NCBI GenBank assembly: GCA_020057885.1
Contig: JAGVEX010000009.1
Location: 36,704-100,703, forward strand
Origin: a bacterium
Lineage (GTDB): Bacteria; Patescibacteriota; Patescibacteriia; Veblenbacterales; UBA10138
Length of the DNA stretch: 64,000 nucleotides
Reading direction: 5' to 3'
Notes under the pieces: generated by a model
The model's input: only the letters and a program-made list of their open reading frames with translations
What the model was told of the DNA's origin: nothing
Databases searched by the model: none
Made by a program: the position numbers and the translations under genes
Shown here: piece after piece, positions 5,719-63,013 of the stretch
How positions within the stretch are numbered: the stretch's first letter is position 1
How the letters are laid out: every line of letters starts with the position of its first letter

Positions 5719-6492
5719 CTAATTACTTTCTACGCACGCCGCCTTAACACAGGCACACTTAATACCTTCCCGATATGGTGCTCGACCTAAATCTATACCA
5801 AGACGTTTATTATCTGCTTCCACTCGAGCCACATATTCCGGTGTATGACAACCGCCTGTGAACCAAATGAATTGACAATCGTTGTCTTGTGCACATTGAT
5901 CTTTCACTTTATCAATTAAAGTCGCTTTTGTAGTTAGTTTAAAAGTCGAAAGAATTTGCTGATATATACCCGAATCTATATCAGTAGTATTAGAGAACAT
6001 TATGTCATAAATATATCCACTATTCTCGTCTTTACTCCATACATTAATGAACGGCAATATACATTTTTCTACACCACAACGACCAGGAAATTTTACTTCA
6101 GTTGCCACAATACCACCTAATAAATAAGAATTTTCTGTATTGCCAGGGGGAGATGAAAAATGTTTCTGACCTACTACACTCACACTCACAGATTGCGTTT
6201 CATCAAGTGGATTTTTAACATCTAACACCACTCCGCCGATAGATGGAGTTGCGACTATATATGATTTTTCAATCCAGGAGGAAGGATGTTTTATCTCAAA
6301 CCCATATTGCTCATTACGATAGGTTTTTAAATTTGATGTATCAGTTAAATTGACTGGATTAATTTGGCCGTATTTTTTTAAATCCACTTGCTTTTGTAAA
6401 AGCATTGCACAACCAGCAGCTATAAGCAAAACAAAGACTATAGCTACGGTTGTAATAATTGATGAGGTAAAAAGATGTTTCCTTAGATTCAT
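5719..6492 (-). CDS. secreted Cys-rich protein, paralog family with 6568..7917
   Basis: 257 aa, N-terminal TM/signal; shares the KTYRNEQYGFE(I/L)xxPSxW module with the neighbour; C-terminal Cys cluster. Confidence 0.45.
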   Translation of the reverse strand: MNLRKHLFTSSIITTVAIVFVLLIAAGCAMLLQKQVDLKKYGQINPVNLTDTSNLKTYRNEQYGFEIKHPSSWIEKSYIVATPSIGGVVLDVKNPLDETQSVSVSVVGQKHFSSPPGNTENSYLLGGIVATEVKFPGRCGVEKCILPFINVWSKDENSGYIYDIMFSNTTDIDSGIYQQILSTFKLTTKATLIDKVKDQCAQDNDCQFIWFTGGCHTPEYVARVEADNKRLGIDLGRAPYREGIKCACVKAACVESN

Positions 6493-20616: not shown

Positions 20617-20760
20617 AAAGCCCCGTGTTAGCTAGGCCTTGCGACCCCATACCGGTTTCCCGGTATGGCCCAATGACGAGTTGCTGAACACGGGGTTCAG
20701 TATCGTCATTGGGTCTTATGCTGCCATGCCCACAGCAGAGTCGTGGGTTTAGGCAATTAA
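20617..20760 (-). ncRNA. GC-rich highly structured 5' leader / ncRNA candidate (riboswitch-like)
   Basis: Nested perfect hairpins: CCAUACCGG-GAAA-CCGGUAUGG (GNRA loop), CCCAAUGACGA...UCGUCAUUGGG enclosing CUGAAC-CCCGUG-UUCAG, CUGC...GCAG, plus a possible pseudoknot CCCCGUG/CACGGGG. Lies directly upstream of the 20586 start. Confidence 0.3.
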
Positions 20761-56085: not shown

Positions 56086-57564
56086 TTATTTTTCACAGAC
56101 CGCTCGGGCTCGACGCGCAAAATCAAAAAAGATTATTGCATGCTCAATAGCTTCTGGTAAAGCCTTGGTTTTAGTAACGGCTGTTTTAATAATCAGCCAC
56201 CAGTACAACCAGCGCTCTTGAGAAAGCATTCCAATTTTCCAGTGAGCCAGTAAAACGGCTTTAACGTCTTGCAGTGACAAACGACCCTTTACTGTAGGAT
56301 TATAATGTTTCAAAAAAGTATGAATCCTTTGGTAATAAGGCTTGGGTGAGTAGATTTGTTCTATTAGCCAACGATAACCGTTACATAATATATCAGCCGG
56401 CATTTTAGGAACAAAATCAAGTTGAACATTAGTTTGTTCTCCTCCAGTGGTCTTAACTAAACGACCTTCTTTACGCAGACGAAAATACAGTTCGGTATTC
56501 TTAACAACATTCAACAAGCCAACCATGGCTGTAACAATACCGGAATTCTGTATAAAATTTTTCTGTAAAGAAAAAATATTTTCTGGGTCATTATCAAAAC
56601 CTACTATAAATCCACCCAATACTTGTAAGCCTTTTGTGTTTATTTTCTTCACCGCCGCCATTAAATCTGTGTGTGTATTTTGACGCTTATTGCATTCCTT
56701 TAAACTTTCCAAATGCGGGGTCTCAATACCAACAAATACCTTATAAAAGTTGGCCTTAACCATCAGGTCAAGTAGTTCGTCGTCATCAGCTAAGGTAATA
56801 TCGGCTTCTGTGGAAAATTTAAAAGGAAAACCATGCGCCTTCTGCCAGATAATAATGTCAAGTAAGAGTTTTCTCACTTTAATTTTATTGCCGATAAAAT
56901 TATCATCAACAATAAAAACTCCGCCGCGCCAACCAGCCCCATAAAGAGATTGCAACTCATTAATGAATTGCTGGTTTGTTTTGGTGCGGGGTACTTGACC
57001 AAACATTTTTCTGACATCGCAGAAATCGCACTTACGAGGACATCCGCGTGAAAACTGCAACATCATGGTTGAATAGTCTTTGAAATTAATCAGCGACCAA
57101 TCTGGTATGGGTGTTAAATTTAAATCTGGGTATGTATTGGAGATGTATTCACGTTGTAAATTTCCCAGCTCTAAATCTTTCAAAAACAGCGGCAATGTAA
57201 TTTCAGCTTCATTCAACACGTAATGGCTCACGCCCTTAAAAATATCAGGCTCGGTTGTAAATAGCGGTCCGCCTGCCACTACCGGCTTACTAAAACTATT
57301 GCAACGATCAATAATTTCTTGGGAGCTTTTAGTTTGCACTGTCATAGCGCTGATAAATACATAATCAGCCCATTGTATATCTGCGTCTGTTAAAGGTCTC
57401 ACGTTTTCATCTATCAATCGTCTTTCCCATTCTTTGGGTAACATAGTTGATACCGTTAGTAACCCTAGTGGTGGCGAGGCTGCTTTGCGGTTGATAAATT
57501 TAAGTGCTTTCCTGAATGTCCAAAAACTGTCGGGGAACCTTGGGTATACGAATAATATTCGCAT
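56086..57564 (-). CDS. B12-binding radical SAM enzyme (class B rSAM methyltransferase-like, DUF4070-type C-terminus)
   Basis: 492 aa; N-terminal cobalamin-binding-like domain (MRILFVYPRF...); CPRKCDFCD radical-SAM CxxxCxxC. Confidence 0.65.
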   Translation of the reverse strand: MRILFVYPRFPDSFWTFRKALKFINRKAASPPLGLLTVSTMLPKEWERRLIDENVRPLTDADIQWADYVFISAMTVQTKSSQEIIDRCNSFSKPVVAGGPLFTTEPDIFKGVSHYVLNEAEITLPLFLKDLELGNLQREYISNTYPDLNLTPIPDWSLINFKDYSTMMLQFSRGCPRKCDFCDVRKMFGQVPRTKTNQQFINELQSLYGAGWRGGVFIVDDNFIGNKIKVRKLLLDIIIWQKAHGFPFKFSTEADITLADDDELLDLMVKANFYKVFVGIETPHLESLKECNKRQNTHTDLMAAVKKINTKGLQVLGGFIVGFDNDPENIFSLQKNFIQNSGIVTAMVGLLNVVKNTELYFRLRKEGRLVKTTGGEQTNVQLDFVPKMPADILCNGYRWLIEQIYSPKPYYQRIHTFLKHYNPTVKGRLSLQDVKAVLLAHWKIGMLSQERWLYWWLIIKTAVTKTKALPEAIEHAIIFFDFARRARAVCEK

Positions 57565-57740
57565 AATCTTTCACCTGCCTTTCATGCGGTAATGTATTGA
57601 TTGTTAATGAATTATTTTTGTTTTAATAATAAAGTTTTAGCATAAAACTAATAATAATTCAAATATCTAAATATGCCTTTTAAACAAAACTCCACGGGCT
57701 TATGCCCGTGGTTTAAGTAAAGTATTATGGTATATAAAAA

Positions 57741-58150
57741 CATACCAATGGTCGGGGTGGAGGCCTGCCTGCGACTCGATTGAGCTCGTCGAAATCCGGC
57801 AGGCAGGGAGTCGCCCATAAACCACAATGGTTCAGGGCGCCCTGAACCGCGTTCCGCTCCGCGGAACTCTGGTTCTAGGGCGAACCCTCTGTCACACCCT
57901 CCGGGGTGAAATTATTTATTCTGAATCATCTCATCAGAGTCGGGGTGGAGGGAGTCGAACCCTCTGTCACACCCACCCCAAGGGTGCATGTTACCGGTAC
58001 ACCACACCCCGACCCTGATGAGATTTTTAAAAAATGTACACCCGTGAAAGCTGCAAGTTTTCGCTTTCACCCCCGCGGATGCTTAAAGTTGCCGGCTTGC
58101 CCTGTACCTCCGCCAAAGGCGGATGGTGCAGGGTACACCACACCCCGACC
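57741..58150. repeat. tRNA-Pro fragments and GC-rich perfect palindromes flanking the intact tRNA-Pro
   Basis: 3'-end fragment gtcggggtggag at 57741-57752; anticodon-to-T-arm fragment at 57883-57905; 5' acceptor/D-arm fragment at 58128-58150; perfect hairpins ggaacgcggttcagggcgccctgaaccgcgttcc. Confidence 0.5.
57940..58011 (-). tRNA. tRNA-Pro (anticodon GGG), no encoded CCA
   Basis: Minus strand CGGGGTG-TG-GTGT-ACCGGTAAC-ACAT-G-CACCC-TTGGGGT-GGGTG-TGACA-GAGGG-TTCGACT-CCCTC-CACCCCG-A; anticodon loop UUGGGGU. Confidence 0.7.
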
Positions 58151-58164
58151 ACTAGTATGTTTAT

Positions 58165-58192
58165 AAGCAAAAAAGCCCAACGGGCTTCAATG
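58165..58192 (-). terminator. strong intrinsic terminator (minus strand)
   Basis: agcccgttgggct followed by ttttttgc on the minus strand. Confidence 0.6.
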
Positions 58193-58608
58193 TAACATTA
58201 TTTCCCTAAAATTAAAAGCCCTACCATCGGTTTGATACAATTGGAGTTCCTGTGAATCAAGTTGGGTTGGTTCTAAAGGCCGCTGGGGCCAATGAGGGTG
58301 TGTTCCTTACTCCCACTGTTCCATACTGCCTCTACCCCTTTACCGCTTGGTGTTCTCGAACTTATGCCCAAGGGCATAAATTATACTGAACCCCTATATA
58401 TTGAGATTGTAGAGCTCAATAAATATCAAACCATGTTGGATAGAGCTATTATTAATGATAGCGCAGATTAAGCAAGTTGTCAAGGCAATAAAATGAAGTT
58501 TTTGGCTAAGATTAGCCTTTTTTAAGTAAGTTAGCCAAAAATAAAAGGGGCGAATTTTTCGTCCCTTTTTTAAGCAAAATTTTATTGTTTTTTATGAATA
58601 TTTTTTCA

Positions 58609-58932
58609 CTATGACGGCCCCCACGAAAACCCGCCACTAATACCTAAGCTAGCCTTGATCATATCATAAATAAATCCCCTTAATACGCCTTTATAATTAT
58701 AATAAAGATCATTTTTGGTTTCGCGAGGAATAACATCTATTAATTGATTCAAATTAGTTTTAGAATTTTGAAATTTCTTCTCCGCTTCCGACACTGCGTC
58801 ATAATAACTCTGCAATTCACATATTGCTGCGGGTGTACCGCCTTCTTTTAAAATTTTCTCTATACGAGCCTTTAGTCCCTCTCTAGCGCTTAACAAAAGA
58901 ATCAACTCATTATTTGGCTTTTCCATAATCAA
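58609..58932 (-). CDS. hypothetical protein
   Basis: 107-aa ORF. Confidence 0.35.
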   Translation of the reverse strand: MIMEKPNNELILLLSAREGLKARIEKILKEGGTPAAICELQSYYDAVSEAEKKFQNSKTNLNQLIDVIPRETKNDLYYNYKGVLRGFIYDMIKASLGISGGFSWGPS

Positions 58933-58952
58933 CTCCTTTCTTTTTTTTTGTT

Positions 58953-59279
58953 TTAAATAAACCCTTTCCCGACCACTGCCTGATCTGAGTTGGCTGAAAA
59001 ACTATTATCACAATCAATGTCTAAAACATATGGCAACGGCAAGGAAATACTTTTTTTACATTTTGATTTACTTGAAGTATGTTTTTTACCGCTGAGTTTT
59101 TCAAAGTTAAGTTGGCTGTTTAAACACATCTGACGAATTAATTCTCTGCCTTTTGCCATAGCCGGCGTAACTAAATCCTTATGTTCTGCAAAATGCGCAT
59201 TTACATCGGCGCAAAGAAACATAAAAGATTTAAGCATAAACTTAGCTACTTCAACTTCCTGTTTTTTGGGTTTTGACAT
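58953..59279 (-). CDS. hypothetical protein
   Basis: 108-aa ORF, Lys/Cys rich. Confidence 0.35.
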   Translation of the reverse strand: MSKPKKQEVEVAKFMLKSFMFLCADVNAHFAEHKDLVTPAMAKGRELIRQMCLNSQLNFEKLSGKKHTSSKSKCKKSISLPLPYVLDIDCDNSFSANSDQAVVGKGFI

Positions 59280-59461
59280 ACGTTACTCCTTTTATTTTTA
59301 TTTTTTAATTTATTTAATTTTCAAAGAACCATATAACAAAAATGCCTTCTAAAATAATCCAGAAGGTATTGAAACTTTAAATCTAATTTTGTATCTACAA
59401 CAACTCAGCTCCAAGCCTTCTAATCAGAGTCCGCCACCAATAAAAGTTGCTATGATTTATA

Positions 59462-59773
59462 TTAAGCATATTTTCTAAGTAATTCATTAAACCCATTATT
59501 CTTACTATATTTAAGTTCGCGTGAACCGCGTTCTACTGTGGCTATCGCCACACCCAAACGATAAGCAACTTCGCGAATAGATAAACCCTTGCTAAGCAAC
59601 TTAACTATCTGCCAACGCAAAGCCAACTCATTATACTCGCCTGGTGTTAATAAATCACCTAAAAATCTGCTAATCTGTCCGGCTGACTTTAGGTGAGCAA
59701 ATAAGCCAACCAACTCCTGTTGAAAAGCACGCTGAGCCTGGGGCTGTTTTTTAACTAATTTATCTCGCGCCAT
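59462..59773 (-). CDS. TrpR-family (YerC/YecD-like) DNA-binding protein
   Basis: 103 aa; LLTPGEYNELALRWQIVKLLSKGLSIREVAYRLGVAIATVERGSREL matches the TrpR/YerC HTH. Confidence 0.7.
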   Translation of the reverse strand: MARDKLVKKQPQAQRAFQQELVGLFAHLKSAGQISRFLGDLLTPGEYNELALRWQIVKLLSKGLSIREVAYRLGVAIATVERGSRELKYSKNNGFNELLRKYA

Positions 59774-59801
59774 AATCCAATAATCATTATATATTAGCTA
59801 C

Positions 59802-59838
59802 TCCTATACTATTGTACTAGTACAATAGTATAGGAGTC
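59802..59838. promoter_or_regulatory. perfect 37-bp palindrome with TrpR-operator-like ACTAGT core, 29 bp upstream of the TrpR-family gene
   Basis: ctcctatactattgtactagtacaatagtataggag. Confidence 0.5.
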
Positions 59839-59971
59839 AAATAAAGTCAAGCATCCCAAGCTAAACTGAATAAATAATTCCCCTACTCAAAATAAAAAGG
59901 TTCCTTGTTATGGAACCTTTAAAAAGATGGTTATTTTGAAATTATTTTTGTTTTAATTAAACATCTCTACT

Positions 59972-60148
59972 CTGCCTAAGCAGTCCAATTTGTCCACCAA
60001 TCCAATTCTGGCCTGTCTATTAACAATAAGCGACTGGATATTATGCAACCACGGCAGGAACAAAATTCATCTCGCATAAAATATGATAGTGAATAATGTT
60101 CACCGCTATGTTGACAATAATATAACATCTCAGCATTATTACTGATCA
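59972..60148 (-). CDS. small Cys-rich peptide (58 aa), translationally coupled
   Basis: MISNNAEMLYYCQHSGEHYSLSYFMRDEFCSCRGCIISSRLLLIDRPELDWWTNWTA; strong SD AAAGGAGGT lies 7 nt upstream inside the stop region of the preceding gene. Confidence 0.4.
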
Positions 60149-60151
60149 TAA

Positions 60152-60499
60152 TTAACCTCCTTTAATTGGTAACTTAACTGGTAACATAGAATCTAGGGCG
60201 TGAACTGACATTGAATGGGAGTCTTTGGCGTCTGGAAGAACAGCACTAAATTTATCACTAAATGGATCATGTTCTTGATGTAAACGGCTTTTTTCAACTC
60301 TCAAATCACCACTGGGTGATACACAATAGTTCTTAAAAGGAAGCAGGGTGCAATCTGGTGAAACAATAGCACAATCAACCTGTAAGCATTCTAGTGCGCA
60401 TGTGATATTATTTATTGCCAAAAAATGTCCATGGAAAGCAGTTATCACTTGGTATGTAGGCTCAGGTGCCTGTTGTTCTGTTTTTATTTCGTCAGACAT
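60152..60499 (-). CDS. Cys-rich small protein (115 aa)
   Basis: CALECLQVDCAIVSPDCTLLPFKNYC cluster; overlaps upstream gene by 8 nt. Confidence 0.45.
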   Translation of the reverse strand: MSDEIKTEQQAPEPTYQVITAFHGHFLAINNITCALECLQVDCAIVSPDCTLLPFKNYCVSPSGDLRVEKSRLHQEHDPFSDKFSAVLPDAKDSHSMSVHALDSMLPVKLPIKGG

Positions 60500-60731
60500 G
60501 AAAGTCCGTCCTCTCTTTTTCTTCTTTAGTGATTGATGAGTTATCTAGTTGTTCATTTTGCGTTTGTGATATGGGTAACATACAAGGAATGTTATCTGTG
60601 CTAATGTTTTCTGCAAAAATACCAGTTTGGCTGGCTCCGCACTTAGTACAATATAGTGCGGTTTTATCCAAAAAATATCCACAATTGCCACATTTCTTAA
60701 TATTATTAGTACTAGTCATGACAAACCTCAA
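60492..60731 (-). CDS. double zinc-ribbon small protein (79 aa)
   Basis: CGNCG...CTKCG. Confidence 0.45.
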   Translation of the reverse strand: MRFVMTSTNNIKKCGNCGYFLDKTALYCTKCGASQTGIFAENISTDNIPCMLPISQTQNEQLDNSSITKEEKERTDFHV

Positions 60732-61024
60732 AATAGTTTATTGAATTGGTAATTTATTAATTTGTTAAAAGGCTATGTTGTAACGAAACAACCGCTCTTT
60801 TTTGAGAGCGGTTGTGGAATTTACGAAATTTATCTGAAACTAGTGTATTATTTCATTATCCTCGCCGCTCTTGCGTTAATAATAGTAATAAGACCAAGTA
60901 TAATATCTTGGTTCTTACACACGAGCGACTTGTAGCTTAAATTGAACATAAATTTAGGATGTTACAATGCATATTAACATAGCTAAAAATTGTGTCAACG
61001 GGTAAACTTATCCACAAAAACAAA

Positions 61025-61056
61025 ATAGCGACAACATTTTTACTGTCGCTATTATT
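61025..61056 (-). terminator. intrinsic terminator
   Basis: aatagcgaca-gtaaaaatgt-tgtcgctatt then ttgtttttgtgg on the minus strand. Confidence 0.5.
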
Positions 61057-61067
61057 TCAACTATAAA

Positions 61068-61187
61068 TCACAATTTATTCGCACCAGGGCGTGGCCTTAT
61101 ACCCTGAGCTGCTGGGAGATTATATGTGATTCTTTTTTTGCGGCGTATTTTTTTACTCCGCGGCACCTTTTTCTTTGTGTTTTTCAT
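61068..61187 (-). CDS. tiny highly basic peptide (39 aa) with canonical SD
   Basis: MKNTKKKVPRSKKIRRKKRITYNLPAAQGIRPRPGANKL; AAGGAG 8 nt upstream; terminator immediately downstream. Confidence 0.35.
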   Translation of the reverse strand: MKNTKKKVPRSKKIRRKKRITYNLPAAQGIRPRPGANKL

Positions 61188-61215
61188 AACTACTCTCCTT
61201 TGATTATTTGTTTAA

Positions 61216-61464
61216 TTATTTATTTTTTGGTTTTAAGGAAACATATTTCTCTTCAATTTGGCGGTGCTGCTTTCGCAGATAACACTGTTTTATTTTTAAT
61301 TGACGCCATTCTCGCGCCGCTAACATTAAATCATGCTTGGCTTTCAATTCTTGTTTTATATTTTGACAAGCAATCTTAATCTCTATAAGTTGCTTATGTA
61401 AATCTTGAATGGTTGTTTCTTCTTTAATAGTTGTTCCTGCTGCACCATTGTTCCATAAAGACAT
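61216..61464 (-). CDS. hypothetical coiled-coil protein
   Basis: 82-aa ORF. Confidence 0.35.
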   Translation of the reverse strand: MSLWNNGAAGTTIKEETTIQDLHKQLIEIKIACQNIKQELKAKHDLMLAAREWRQLKIKQCYLRKQHRQIEEKYVSLKPKNK

Positions 61465-61939
61465 GGCTAACTCCTTTTAAAAGTGACTGATAATCAATTG
61501 TTAATTTACATTTTAATTTTATTTAAAACAAAAAGCGCTTTTCGCCCTAAAGCATCCGAGAGAGAAGAAACTTCTCTAACAGAAAATCTTAAGGACGAAA
61601 AGCGCTTTTCAAATTGTAAAACACTTTCCGCGGTACCACCCTGATTGGCTAATAACTAATGGCAACCTGCCTATAGCATTAACCCTCTTTATGCACTCCC
61701 AAATTTATGAGATATACACTTATTCTATAACGGGAACTCCCGTCCTTATCTAATATTCAAAAAATGAAATTCAATAAGGCAACTCCAGAGGGAACTTCCA
61801 CTAAAATACCCCGGAAAATGCTCACAATCAAGGCATTTTCTCCCTGTACAGGATAAATAAAGTGTACTTTCCTCTTTCACTGTTTTTAACTAATTTCTAA
61901 AAGAACAACCTGTAAAAACTATTATACACCCAGTTAAAA

Positions 61940-63013
61940 TTATGTCAATTCCAACACTTCCACCATCTGCTTAACAAGAGATACAACTATTGGAGGCGGT
62001 AGTAAACTATAACTATCGCGGCCCTCGTCATCCTTTATAACCCACTCCGATTCTTTGATATTCACCGTGCCGTCGGCTTTAAGCTCATAATCATAGCCTG
62101 GCGTAATTTCATAATCATCCACTTTGTCTTTAGCGCCCTCAACAGGAATTGCGTTGCGTAAATAAACCTTAGGTATGCCATGAAGGCCAAGTAGTTGTTT
62201 CATTATTTTATCATCCATCTCAAGCCGTTCTCTAATTGGATCAATACCAAGGTTATCACCTTCTTTGGGAACCATTCTAGTGCTATTGCAACCAGGGTTA
62301 TCACACTTTAAATAAAACTGCTTGGTCGCCTGATCATAACCAGCCTCTTTGGTAACCATTAATTTTAAATTTCGTGGTGTTTTGCAAATAGGACAAATTA
62401 CCCGGTATTTAATACGCTCGTTAATAACCGTGTTGGGTAAGCTGATAAAAGTTAAAAAATCAGGATCTTCGCGATAGCCAATAATCTCTTTAAGAAATAA
62501 AGAATATCCCACCTGATCCAAAGCCCGCGGAAAGCCATCAATAAAAATAGCTTGCCTGGGGCGCTTGGAAATTTCGTACTTAATAAGCGTGAGAATAAGT
62601 TCAGAGGAGATTAGAGTAGACTGGCTGCGTCCTAAAATAAGATCAACAATCTCGCTAGGCGAATGAAAGCCGCGATAATTTTTTTCAACAAAAGAAATAA
62701 ATTCTTTTTGTCCATCTTCTGTTTCCACTAATTTATGTGCATCGCGCACAATATCCCCTATGGAAAGATGTCCAATTTTGTCGCTTCCTACCGCCTCCAT
62801 AAATAATTTAGAATACGTTCCCTTGCCTGAATTCTTTTTACCCAATAAAAAAGCAACAAAAGTATTGCCTTTATCTAAATAATTCTTGATTATTTTAAGC
62901 TCCGCGCCCATTTTAGCGTCAAAATATTTCCGCCGTTCAGCTGGATCGTTTAAATTAAAACGTGCCGAACCTTCAACCTTTGTTTTGAACACTGGAAAAT
63001 TATTTAACTCCAT
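61940..63013 (-). CDS. adenylate-kinase-like P-loop NMP kinase with zinc-lid and ~150-aa C-terminal extension
   Basis: 357 aa; FLLGKKNSGKGTYSKLFMEAVGSDKIGHLSIGDIVRD parallels Adk (ILLGxPGxGKGTQ...ISTGDMLR); lid CPICKTPRNL...CDNPGC. Confidence 0.45.
   Translation of the reverse strand: MELNNFPVFKTKVEGSARFNLNDPAERRKYFDAKMGAELKIIKNYLDKGNTFVAFLLGKKNSGKGTYSKLFMEAVGSDKIGHLSIGDIVRDAHKLVETEDGQKEFISFVEKNYRGFHSPSEIVDLILGRSQSTLISSELILTLIKYEISKRPRQAIFIDGFPRALDQVGYSLFLKEIIGYREDPDFLTFISLPNTVINERIKYRVICPICKTPRNLKLMVTKEAGYDQATKQFYLKCDNPGCNSTRMVPKEGDNLGIDPIRERLEMDDKIMKQLLGLHGIPKVYLRNAIPVEGAKDKVDDYEITPGYDYELKADGTVNIKESEWVIKDDEGRDSYSLLPPPIVVSLVKQMVEVLELT

Follow-up and report, generated by a model that had tools for sequence, protein, structure and literature searches.

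The window analysed here is a stretch of 64,000 nucleotides of contig JAGVEX010000009.1 from a patescibacterium, on the minus strand of which two independent transcription units appear to lie side by side. The first is probably a tryptophan cassette: a TrpR-family repressor gene, trpR, with a predicted palindromic operator over its own promoter, followed in the same message by a short leader open reading frame (ORF) with tandem Trp codons and by an attenuator. The second would be a separate operon of three small Cys-rich genes, named A, B and C here, with a promoter and a leader of its own. We consider this two-unit reading quite likely. An earlier reading made from the letters of the window (the sequence-only reading) had drawn attention to the TrpR-family gene, the palindrome and the Cys-rich genes, and had missed three features: the Trp-codon leader and attenuator past trpR, the separate leader of gene A and a T-box further upstream.

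Loci compared

Sequence features, conservation, pairing energies and gene contexts are what was observed directly in this analysis. The close loci are the window together with L001, L002, L005, L006 and L039 (six in all, five of them independent orthologues of the window), and the close trpR contigs L001-L007 are syntenic, with an adenylate-kinase-like gene, small genes, trpR and a tRNA-Pro gene. Among 5.8 billion proteins, a word-indexed search returned only eight relatives of the window TrpR. Species-representative genomes, scanned for trpR, gave 27 loci, of which 26 are outside the close clade; these 26 distant loci amount to 263.5 kb and are labelled Nomurabacteria, Paceibacterota, Magasanikbacteria or Patescibacteria, some labels being generic (for example 'uncultured Saccharibacteria' or 'Gammaproteobacteria'). 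Judging from these relatives, the organism seems to be a member of the candidate phyla radiation (CPR). Controls consisted of 100 shuffles for the palindrome and 1000 for each antiterminator or segment pairing, and copies of the operator in the organism's own genome were sought within the 64 kb window. The segment under study is low in GC, and the features of the locus are all on the minus strand.

A probable Trp repressor by family and context

59462-59773, minus strand: trpR, a 103-aa TrpR-family repressor (Pfam PF01371, NCBIfam, PDB profile, dN/dS)

The 103-residue (103-aa) protein was placed in the TrpR family by the sequence-only reading, and rightly so: it matches the Pfam model Trp_repressor (PF01371) at 66.7 bits, for a cut-off of 27, over residues 19-101. 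Among the NCBIfam models the best-scoring one is TrpR, ahead of YerC/YecD (47.5 versus 30.2 bits). The YerC/YecD proteins have the same Pfam family and size, and a profile of nine CPR homologues, which matches E. coli TrpR structures in the PDB at E ~3e-8, gives about the same score for the YerC/YecD structures (PDB 3kor, 3frw and 3g1c). However, the window protein falls below the cut-off of the YerC/YecD model TIGR02531 (30.2 bits for 42.2), scores lower there than against TrpR, and has relatives that are found in trp gene contexts.

The window motifs LTPGE, LRWQIV, SIREV and IATVERGS align with LTPDE, TRVRIV, SQREL and IATITRGS of E. coli TrpR. The E. coli residues that hold L-tryptophan or contact the operator are Thr44, Arg54, Arg69, Ile79, Ala80, Thr81, Arg84 and Gly85; in the alignment they correspond to the identical residues T43, R53, R67, I77, A78, T79, R82 and G83 of the window protein. 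Four of these (R53, T79, R82 and G83) do not vary among the nine CPR homologues, and R67 and A78 show a conservation of 70% or more. The ratio of nonsynonymous to synonymous substitution rates (dN/dS) of trpR against its orthologues is 0.07-0.23, the mark of purifying selection, and the protein is 59-79% identical among relatives. Judged by its family and by the gene context of its relatives, the window protein is probably a Trp repressor.

Operator and promoter of trpR

59800-59837, no strand assigned: predicted TrpR operator, a perfect 38-bp palindrome (palindrome search, conservation)
59811-59850, minus strand: predicted trpR promoter (consensus scan; start site inferred)

The sequence-only reading had described a perfect palindrome of 37 bp located 29 bp upstream of trpR. 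The palindrome is indeed perfect, but it measures 38 bp and ends 26 nt from the trpR ATG (59773). Its two arms of 19 nt each (59800-59818 and 59819-59837) are 100% complementary and have no spacer between them, and its core, GTACTAGTAC, is at 59814-59823. It can be read as five ACTAGT-like units with a spacing of 8 bp (ACTCCT / ACTATT / ACTAGT / AATAGT / AGGAGT), a spacing also seen in L005. TrpR dimers of E. coli bind in tandem on ACTAGT units spaced 8 bp, and by analogy several TrpR dimers may bind the array in the window.

The predicted promoter has a -35 element TTGACT at 59850-59845 and a -10 element TATTGT at 59827-59822, separated by a 17-nt spacer; an alternative has its -35 element at 59840-59835, an 18-nt spacer and TACAAT at 59816-59811. 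The operator overlaps the promoter spacer, the -10 element and the predicted start site. This layout (TTGACW-17-TAYYGT) recurs in L001, L002, L005 and L006, and the exact GTACTAGTAC with CTAY-N4-CTAG-N4-RTAG flanks is present in all six close loci, 10-54 nt from the trpR ATG, in surroundings that have diverged. The distant loci contain 22 exact copies of GTACTAGTAC, distributed over 20 of the 26 and none of them farther than about 150 nt past the trpR stop, for a chance expectation that we estimate at about 0.25 copies in 263.5 kb. Wherever these loci have a leader ORF with adjacent Trp codons (a WW ORF, see below), a copy is found just upstream of it, and in L009 the core is at the start site of a TTTGCA-17-TATCAT promoter. 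Since its core overlaps the promoter, the palindrome is very probably an autoregulatory TrpR operator. The proposal of such an operator in the sequence-only reading has thus been strengthened by the presence of the core at all close trpR promoters, where the flanks diverge, and in 20 of 26 distant loci; the better score of TrpR over YerC/YecD and the location of relatives beside trpS, trpE and trpB add to it.

It is extremely unlikely that the palindrome is something other than a TrpR site, whether a hairpin terminator, a repeat dispersed over the genome or a site bound by a different factor. Its length of 38 bp and its perfection are unusual in an operator (the symmetry in L001 and L006 extends over 22-24 bp), and in relatives the trpR promoter has a DnaA-box-like 9-mer beside it, so that other factors may act there. 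Yet the palindrome, for which many genome-wide copies would have spoken against the sequence-only reading, is single-copy in the 64 kb window, with no second match at up to three mismatches and none in 100 shuffles. Moreover, no U-tract follows it, it matches the CTAG-centred half-site of E. coli TrpR, and its core is kept at orthologous promoters and in distant relatives, always beside trpR and the leader ORF.

A Trp-codon leader and a predicted attenuator past trpR

59395-59469, minus strand: trpL-like leader ORF of 24 aa, MLNINHSNFYWWRTLIRRLGAELL (ORF, conservation)
59401-59423, minus strand: 5' strand of the predicted antiterminator, segment X (RNAduplex)
59359-59384, minus strand: 3' strand of the predicted antiterminator, segment Y' (RNAduplex)
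59335-59366, minus strand: intrinsic terminator of the predicted attenuator, a 9-bp stem CCTTCTGGA/TTTAGAAGG at 59366-59345 and then CATTTTTGTT

The ATG of the leader ORF (59469) overlaps the last codons and the stop of trpR (ATGCTTAA), and tandem Trp codons occupy leader codons 11-12 (59439-59434). An ORF with WW, WWW or WYW is found at the equivalent place in 6/6 close loci and overlaps the trpR stop in four of them, the overlap in L002 being ATGA; WW ORFs, for example MKNNFKTNKTGKSWWGARSRAFAPVC, also follow trpR in 20 of the 26 distant loci.

Segment X lies inside the leader ORF, with 10 nt between it and the Trp codons and 3 nt between it and the stop. Its partner Y' takes in the terminator's own 5' arm, so that only one of the two structures can form at a time. 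In the window the X:Y' pairing has a predicted energy of -17.0 kcal/mol (RNAduplex; 19/1000 shuffles equal or better), compared with -9.2 kcal/mol for the terminator hairpin. The other five close loci have antiterminators of -17 to -24 kcal/mol, for which only 0-4/1000 shuffles are as good. The antiterminator starts 1-11 nt past the last Trp codon (6-11 nt in 5/6 loci) and ends at most 8 nt from the leader stop. A terminator at the equivalent place is found in L005, L002, L006 and L039, with sequence changes that preserve the pairing.

The Rfam model of the tryptophan operon leader is built from proteobacterial leaders; it has no match at the gathering score in the window, nor at E<=1 in L004, L005, L007 and L039. 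Two other readings of the RNA past trpR, TRAP sites (UAG/GAG triplets) and, for UGGUGGUACC in L002, the bulge of a T-box antiterminator, were rejected in favour of the in-frame Trp codons in a conserved ORF.

Genes that follow the predicted attenuator

58953-59279, minus strand: orf108, the first gene past the attenuator, with the Shine-Dalgarno sequence AAAGGAG (ORF; L039 homologue)
58609-58926, minus strand: orf107, the second cargo gene, 105 aa from its ATG, ending in ...LGISGGFSWGPS (ORF; L039 homologue)

In several relatives the gene context is that of tryptophan metabolism. The gene trpB directly follows trpR in L002 and L005 (TIGR00263 at 568 bits, for a cut-off of 392) and also in L019; it comes after trpR in L027 as well. 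The cassette precedes trpE in L009, in the order promoter/operator, leader, terminator, trpE, and L032 has both trpE and trpB, with ORFs between them that read as trpG, D, C and F. A gene for a class I tRNA synthetase of the Trp/Tyr type lies upstream of trpR in L019, and similar ORFs precede trpR in L009, L024 and L029.

In the window, orf108 occupies the position that trpB has in relatives. It has a homologue after the same attenuator in L039 (52% identity) and no match in Pfam, NCBIfam, PADLOC or PHROGs. The homologue of orf107 in L039 is 61% identical, and this family has only three members among 5.8 billion proteins. Other small or unknown genes come after the attenuator in L001 and L006.

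We may wonder at this stage whether the cassette is a decaying remnant, its repressor, operator and leader having lost their function with trpB. No trp gene is present in the window, and in L001, L006 and L039, as in the window, trpR is not followed by trpB. Such decay is nevertheless improbable: trpR is under purifying selection (the dN/dS of 0.07-0.23 given above), and the operator core, Trp codons, antiterminator and terminator are intact in all four lineages without trpB, with changes that keep the pairing. The cassette is therefore probably still in use.

In addition, a family unmatched in Pfam and unannotated recurs directly downstream of trpR, mostly after a WW leader ORF, in unrelated CPR genomes (L006 6391-6918, L023 6506-6997, L010 3369-3779 and L028 2347-2688). 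It may have an unrecognised tryptophan-related function.

Proposed mechanism and the points that weigh against it

In the mechanism that we propose, two neighbouring transcription units of the minus strand would operate independently. With tryptophan as corepressor, TrpR would occupy the operator over the trpR promoter, probably as a tandem of at least two dimers, and so keep its own gene repressed. Transcription of trpR would continue into the 24-codon leader ORF, the start of which overlaps the trpR stop. If charged tRNA-Trp were scarce, the ribosome would stall at leader codons 11-12, and the RNA just downstream, left uncovered, would pair with the terminator's 5' arm and allow read-through into the next genes. 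With plentiful tryptophan, the ribosome would reach the leader stop and cover that RNA, so that the terminator would form and transcription would end. In this predicted ribosome geometry, stalling at UGG would free the antiterminator and a ribosome at the stop would cover it. The output of the cassette in this genome would be orf108 and orf107, two small lineage-specific proteins. The second unit would produce A, B and C, small proteins that are probably zinc-binding, with A and B probably in a complex; this operon would be driven by its own promoter and by a leader with mutually exclusive hairpins, outside TrpR control.

Several points weigh against this model. The window TrpR scores 47.5 bits against the NCBI equivalog TIGR01321 (trp operon repressor), under its cut-off of 67.25. 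Folds of the full-length leader favour the terminator in 4/6 close loci, including the window, where the terminator wins thermodynamically even when the region covered by a stalled ribosome is masked; a kinetic switch, like that of classical attenuators, would thus be required. No clear ribosome-binding site is seen for the leader ORF past trpR, the translation of which would depend on coupling to trpR, and in L039 its ATG is 21 nt past the trpR stop. None of TrpS, E, G, D, C, F and B has a match in the 64 kb window (tblastn), and a tryptophan-related output therefore cannot be shown there. For the second unit, the short ORF in the leader of gene A (see below) has no Shine-Dalgarno sequence, and its enrichment in Ile and Leu is modest (3-6 Ile in 32-34 codons). 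Finally, the whole model rests on sequence analysis: DNA binding, the response to tryptophan, ribosome stalling and every function of the small proteins are what we infer from it.

Comparison with known tryptophan systems

The predicted cassette resembles the E. coli TrpR/trpL system in several respects. The repressors belong to the same family, and the window protein keeps the key corepressor and DNA-contact residues. Both systems have an operator of ACTAGT/CTAG units 8 bp apart that overlaps the promoter and an autoregulated trpR (in the window, as predicted), both have a short leader ORF with adjacent Trp codons (11-12 in the window, 10-11 in E. coli trpL), and both have an antiterminator and a terminator that are mutually exclusive. 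In one distant relative, L009, the E. coli order of promoter/operator, leader, terminator and trpE is complete. There are also clear differences. In the window, trpR is in the same transcription unit as the leader, directly upstream of it and translationally coupled to it; the symmetry of the operator is centred on a single CTAG (GTACTAGTAC) and is not of the form GTACT-N8-AGTAC; and the antiterminator strand is wholly within the leader ORF. The cargo in the window is not a trp gene, the protein stays under the TIGR01321 cut-off and the Rfam Trp leader is unmatched.

A second comparison is with the trpRBA operon of Chlamydia trachomatis, which consists of trpR, an intergenic regulatory region and trpB, and in which TrpR represses the promoter upstream of trpR (PMC7755916). 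The annotated chlamydial TrpL has 59 aa with non-adjacent Trp codons and is doubted by the authors, attenuation there being ascribed to YtgR (PMC7755916). The gene order is as in L002 and L005, and on both sides the genomes are reduced and only the indole-salvage step is kept. In contrast, the CPR leaders are short, with adjacent Trp codons and clear alternative hairpins, and the window has neither trpB nor trpA.

The Cys-rich operon A-B-C

60492-60719, minus strand: gene A, 75 aa, with an N-terminal zinc-ribbon-like CxxC-x10-CxxC (ORF, Pfam, dN/dS)
60152-60499, minus strand: gene B, 115 aa, an orphan family with five Cys (ORF, alignment, dN/dS)
59976-60149, minus strand: gene C, 57 aa, with the invariant pattern C-x2-SG-x2-Y ... 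C-x-C-x(0,2)-C (ORF, alignment)
59896-59920, minus strand: intrinsic terminator of the A-B-C operon, upstream of the trpR promoter, a 9-bp stem AAAGGTTCC/GGAACCTTT and then TTATTTT

The three small ORFs are tightly coupled, as the sequence-only reading had stated, but two of the lengths given there had to be revised: protein A has 79 aa only if translation starts at TTG (60731), and 75 aa from the ATG (60719), and protein C has 57 rather than 58 aa. Genes A and B overlap by 8 nt (ATGTCTGA). As gene B ends with ...AAAGGAGGT TAA tt ATG, the Shine-Dalgarno sequence of gene C is in the last codons of gene B, the end of which was where it had been placed before.

The 'double zinc ribbon' formerly seen in A is in fact one CxxC-x10-CxxC ribbon, kept in L001, L006, L039 and P0013; its scores against the Pfam zinc ribbons are under the cut-offs (Zn_Ribbon_1, 22.4 for 25; DZR, 18 for 27.3). 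Protein B has the five Cys that had been counted. A word-indexed search with it finds only itself and an exhaustive search four representatives among 1.84 billion; profile searches of Pfam and the PDB gave no match, and the AlphaFold2 model of B alone is unusable, with a mean predicted local distance difference test score (pLDDT) of 39.6. Over seven sequences, residues Y16, I19, G24, H25, A28, C38, L39, C43, F55 and C59 are invariant. At the position of gene C, the group of L001, L006 and L039 has a longer, unalignable protein. The small proteins have no match in Pfam, NCBIfam, the PDB or PADLOC, and the only match in PHROGs is a weak one, of gene A to a family of unknown function. The conserved residues suggest zinc sites, formed by H25, C38, C43 and C59 in B and by four Cys in C. 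In P0013/L037, A and B are fused in one ORF of 163 aa (6001-6492), and what comes after the operon there is not trpR but a terminator and a tRNA gene.

In the unsaturated pair L001 and L006, genes B and C have dN/dS values of 0.24 and 0.22 and are by this measure under purifying selection; the value for gene A is 0.79. Homologues of the A-B-C proteins are 22-38% identical where alignable, compared with 78-94% for the adenylate-kinase-like gene. In the same pair, the synonymous divergence (dS) of A and B is about 0.3, compared with 1.0 for the adenylate-kinase-like gene and 0.7 for trpR, which hints at a recent exchange of the segment or at a constraint at the nucleotide level.

The conservation of the small ORFs was one of the checks proposed with the sequence-only reading, and the purifying selection on B and C bears it out; a constant co-occurrence with trpR was not found. 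A-B-C is present without an adjacent trpR in L037 and L040, and TrpR is present without A-B-C in 26 other genomes. Because each occurs without the other, their co-occurrence in close relatives amounts to local synteny.

The leader of the A-B-C operon

60782-60998, minus strand: predicted A-B-C promoter and conserved leader (conservation, covariance model, fold z-score)

The predicted promoter of the A-B-C operon, TTGACA-16-TGnTAATAT, is at 60998-60971. Conservation over the 290 nt that precede gene A is higher than in the A-B-C genes themselves; a leader segment of 190 nt has a fold z-score of -5.2 and contains five pairs with compensatory changes, and a covariance model matches the leader only upstream of gene A, in 6/6 loci having that region. 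The leader contains a short ORF (60949-60848) that codes for an Ile/Leu-rich peptide of 33 aa, MFNLSYKSLVCKNQDIILGLITIINARAARIMK, and has 32-34 codons across loci. This ORF is open in three independent lineages despite differences in length, and most of its insertions and deletions are, in our reading of the alignment, multiples of three.

The leader can be divided into segment 1 (60947-60906), segment 2 (60872-60859) and the terminator (60815-60788), with the pairings 1:2, 2:3 and 3:4. The 1:2 hairpin has an energy of -23 to -32 kcal/mol. Segment 2 is located at the end of the short ORF and is a near-copy of the 3' arm of the terminator; its pairing with the 5' arm (2:3) has an energy of -10 to -22 kcal/mol, which 0-41/1000 shuffles match. 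We slightly favour the reading of this leader as a second leader-peptide attenuator. It resembles attenuators of the ilvL/leuL type in its Ile/Leu-rich ORF of 32-34 codons, its segments pairing as 1:2, 2:3 and 3:4 and its intrinsic terminator. It differs from them in its cargo of three small Cys-rich proteins, which are not biosynthetic enzymes, in its lack of a Shine-Dalgarno sequence and in its weaker enrichment in regulatory codons.

Alternatively, the leader might be a riboswitch for a ligand, act as a small RNA in its own right or serve to encode a small, hydrophobic, toxin-like peptide; we consider these roles possible and clearly less likely. The strong structure (z -5.2) and the five compensated pairs would suit such a role, and these alternatives are kept in view because no Shine-Dalgarno sequence precedes the short ORF and the core of its peptide, LGLITII, is conserved and hydrophobic. 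However, the ORF stays open in three independent lineages despite its varying length, a segment 2 at its end that nearly copies the 3' arm of the terminator is the classical four-segment layout, and no Rfam family matches the leader of gene A. Rfam likewise had no match for the leader downstream of trpR or for the GC-rich block described below. A pattern taken from the gene A leader was used to scan a metagenome and hit it only twice, by chance, within a GC-rich kinase gene; this pattern is too strict for the L039 copy.

A 9-mer identical to the DnaA-box consensus (TGTGGATAA/TTATCCACA) is located exactly 8 nt upstream of the -35 element of the gene A leader promoter (window 61008-61016) and of the trpR promoters of several relatives; its positions are 7903 in L002, 448 in L005, 5810 in L006 and 5901 in L032. 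The 64 kb window has only two exact copies of it.

TrpR control of A-B-C and the radical-SAM gene

56086-57564, minus strand: B12-binding/radical S-adenosylmethionine (SAM)/DUF4070 gene (domain search)

The sequence-only reading had placed the Cys-rich genes under the control of TrpR and had viewed their products as possible precursors of ribosomally synthesized and post-translationally modified peptides (RiPPs), or as a metal/redox-handling module, in connection with a B12 radical-SAM enzyme. The gene of this enzyme does lie 2.4 kb from gene C, as stated then. Such an arrangement would recall the B12 radical-SAM clusters of RiPP systems: the genes of the small proteins share a strand with the B12/radical-SAM/DUF4070 gene and are at most 4 kb from it. 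A-B-C and trpR are adjacent on the same strand and syntenic in the closest relatives, the radical-SAM gene is also present in L001 and L039, and an 8-mer, GTACTAGT, is found on the start codon of gene A.

Nevertheless, this explanation is now largely refuted, and we give it very little credence. As for control by TrpR, the terminator at 59920-59896 separates gene C from the trpR promoter, the operator is downstream of A-B-C with no conserved copy upstream, and A-B-C occurs without trpR (L037, L040) as TrpR does without A-B-C (26 genomes). The 8-mer on the start codon of gene A was rejected as a second operator, being absent from L001, L006 and L002. As for the link with the enzyme, trpR, the attenuator, orf108, orf107, a promoter-bearing GC-rich non-coding block and tRNA-Pro lie between A-B-C and the radical-SAM gene, which is thus several units away, and this gene was not found in the 16 kb locus L002, which has A-B-C. 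Unlike a RiPP cluster, the region is not one operon, with a tRNA gene and other units in between, and the co-occurrence is inconsistent. In addition, B and C (57-115 aa) have their invariant Cys/His spread along their length, with no leader-plus-core layout, and none of A, B and C has a recognisable precursor architecture.

The last small protein before tRNA-Pro has a conserved C-terminus, GFSWGPS in the window (58609-58926) and in L039 (2424-2741), and SGCGAMC in L001 (8509-8856) and L005 (2940-3233). The next protein-coding gene after it is the B12 radical-SAM gene in the window and L001; in L039 a methyltransferase gene intervenes. If any protein here is a substrate of the radical-SAM enzyme, this one (orf107 in the window) would be a better candidate than A, B or C.

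T-box and other neighbouring features

61588-61889, minus strand: T-box leader, 114 bits, with a long terminator ending near 61525

Upstream of the A-B-C leader, a T-box is preceded by a perfect promoter of the sigma-70 type (TTGACA-16-TATAAT, 61948-61921, minus strand). It is followed by genes for an 82-aa coiled-coil protein (61464-61216) and a very basic peptide of 39 aa (61187-61068; ...GIRPRPG...), a cargo that is neither a synthetase nor a transporter. L001 and L006 share the specifier loop of the window, GAAGUUC, in which the codon can be read as UUC (Phe, in the register of the model) or as GUU (Val), not as Trp. A T-box sensing tRNA-Trp was rejected, since the UGG by the specifier loop is UAG in L006, where the GAAGUUC loop is conserved. 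No T-box was found in the twelve distant loci searched to calibrate the position of the specifier.

We can tentatively imagine that the 3.3 kb from 58609 to 61948 form an 'amino-acid starvation island', with the T-box, the Ile/Leu-rich attenuator and TrpR with its Trp-codon attenuator in series on one strand, although we regard this idea as rather doubtful. If it were true, each sensor would drive only small, fast-evolving, lineage-specific proteins and not synthetases, transporters or biosynthetic enzymes. A host-dependent CPR bacterium would then re-use these sensors as starvation signals, and the induced proteins would be effectors, for example growth-arrest, ribosome-associated or host-directed factors.

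Between orf107 and the radical-SAM gene, a GC-rich (48-57%) non-coding block stands out at about 57700-58480 in a region of about 34% GC. It has a promoter-like TTGACA-17-TATCAT, and 475 nt of it are 89% identical to L001, far above the flanking proteins; by eye, L037 has a similar block after its gene C. The block of the window is a candidate for a structured RNA. The tRNA-Pro gene (58011-57939) is flanked upstream by a copy of its own 5' half and downstream by a split copy of its 3' half (57650-58130); both copies belong to some 370 nt without an equivalent in L001, and the whole looks like the scar of an insertion or rearrangement.

On the other side of the locus, the adenylate-kinase-like protein (61940-63013, minus strand) has 357 aa and a Cys4 lid and is far longer than an ordinary adenylate kinase; it is under all NCBIfam cut-offs, yet its gene is the best conserved of the neighbourhood, at the 78-94% identity mentioned above. 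Further away, a LOOT RNA (RF03000) is found at 20634-20755 (minus strand) with 79 bits, above the gathering score, and from about 30 to 47 kb the window has a long run of small, tightly packed ORFs that we read as a ribosomal-protein gene cluster. In relatives, S12, S7, EF-G and EF-Tu adjoin the trpR locus.

Implications

Repression by TrpR and attenuation by Trp codons are textbook mechanisms, known mainly from Proteobacteria. The complete pair, with a sharply defined operator (GTACTAGTAC), can now be predicted across the CPR relatives of this trpR, in Patescibacteria, and no paper describing TrpR regulation in CPR bacteria turned up in our literature search. The mechanisms are known ones; the setting is new and the cargo unusual. 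Attenuation by a leader peptide would imply that transcription and translation are tightly coupled in these tiny cells. Moreover, a sensor kept under selection in front of small proteins may provide a handle on genes that are likely to be induced by tryptophan starvation of the symbiont.

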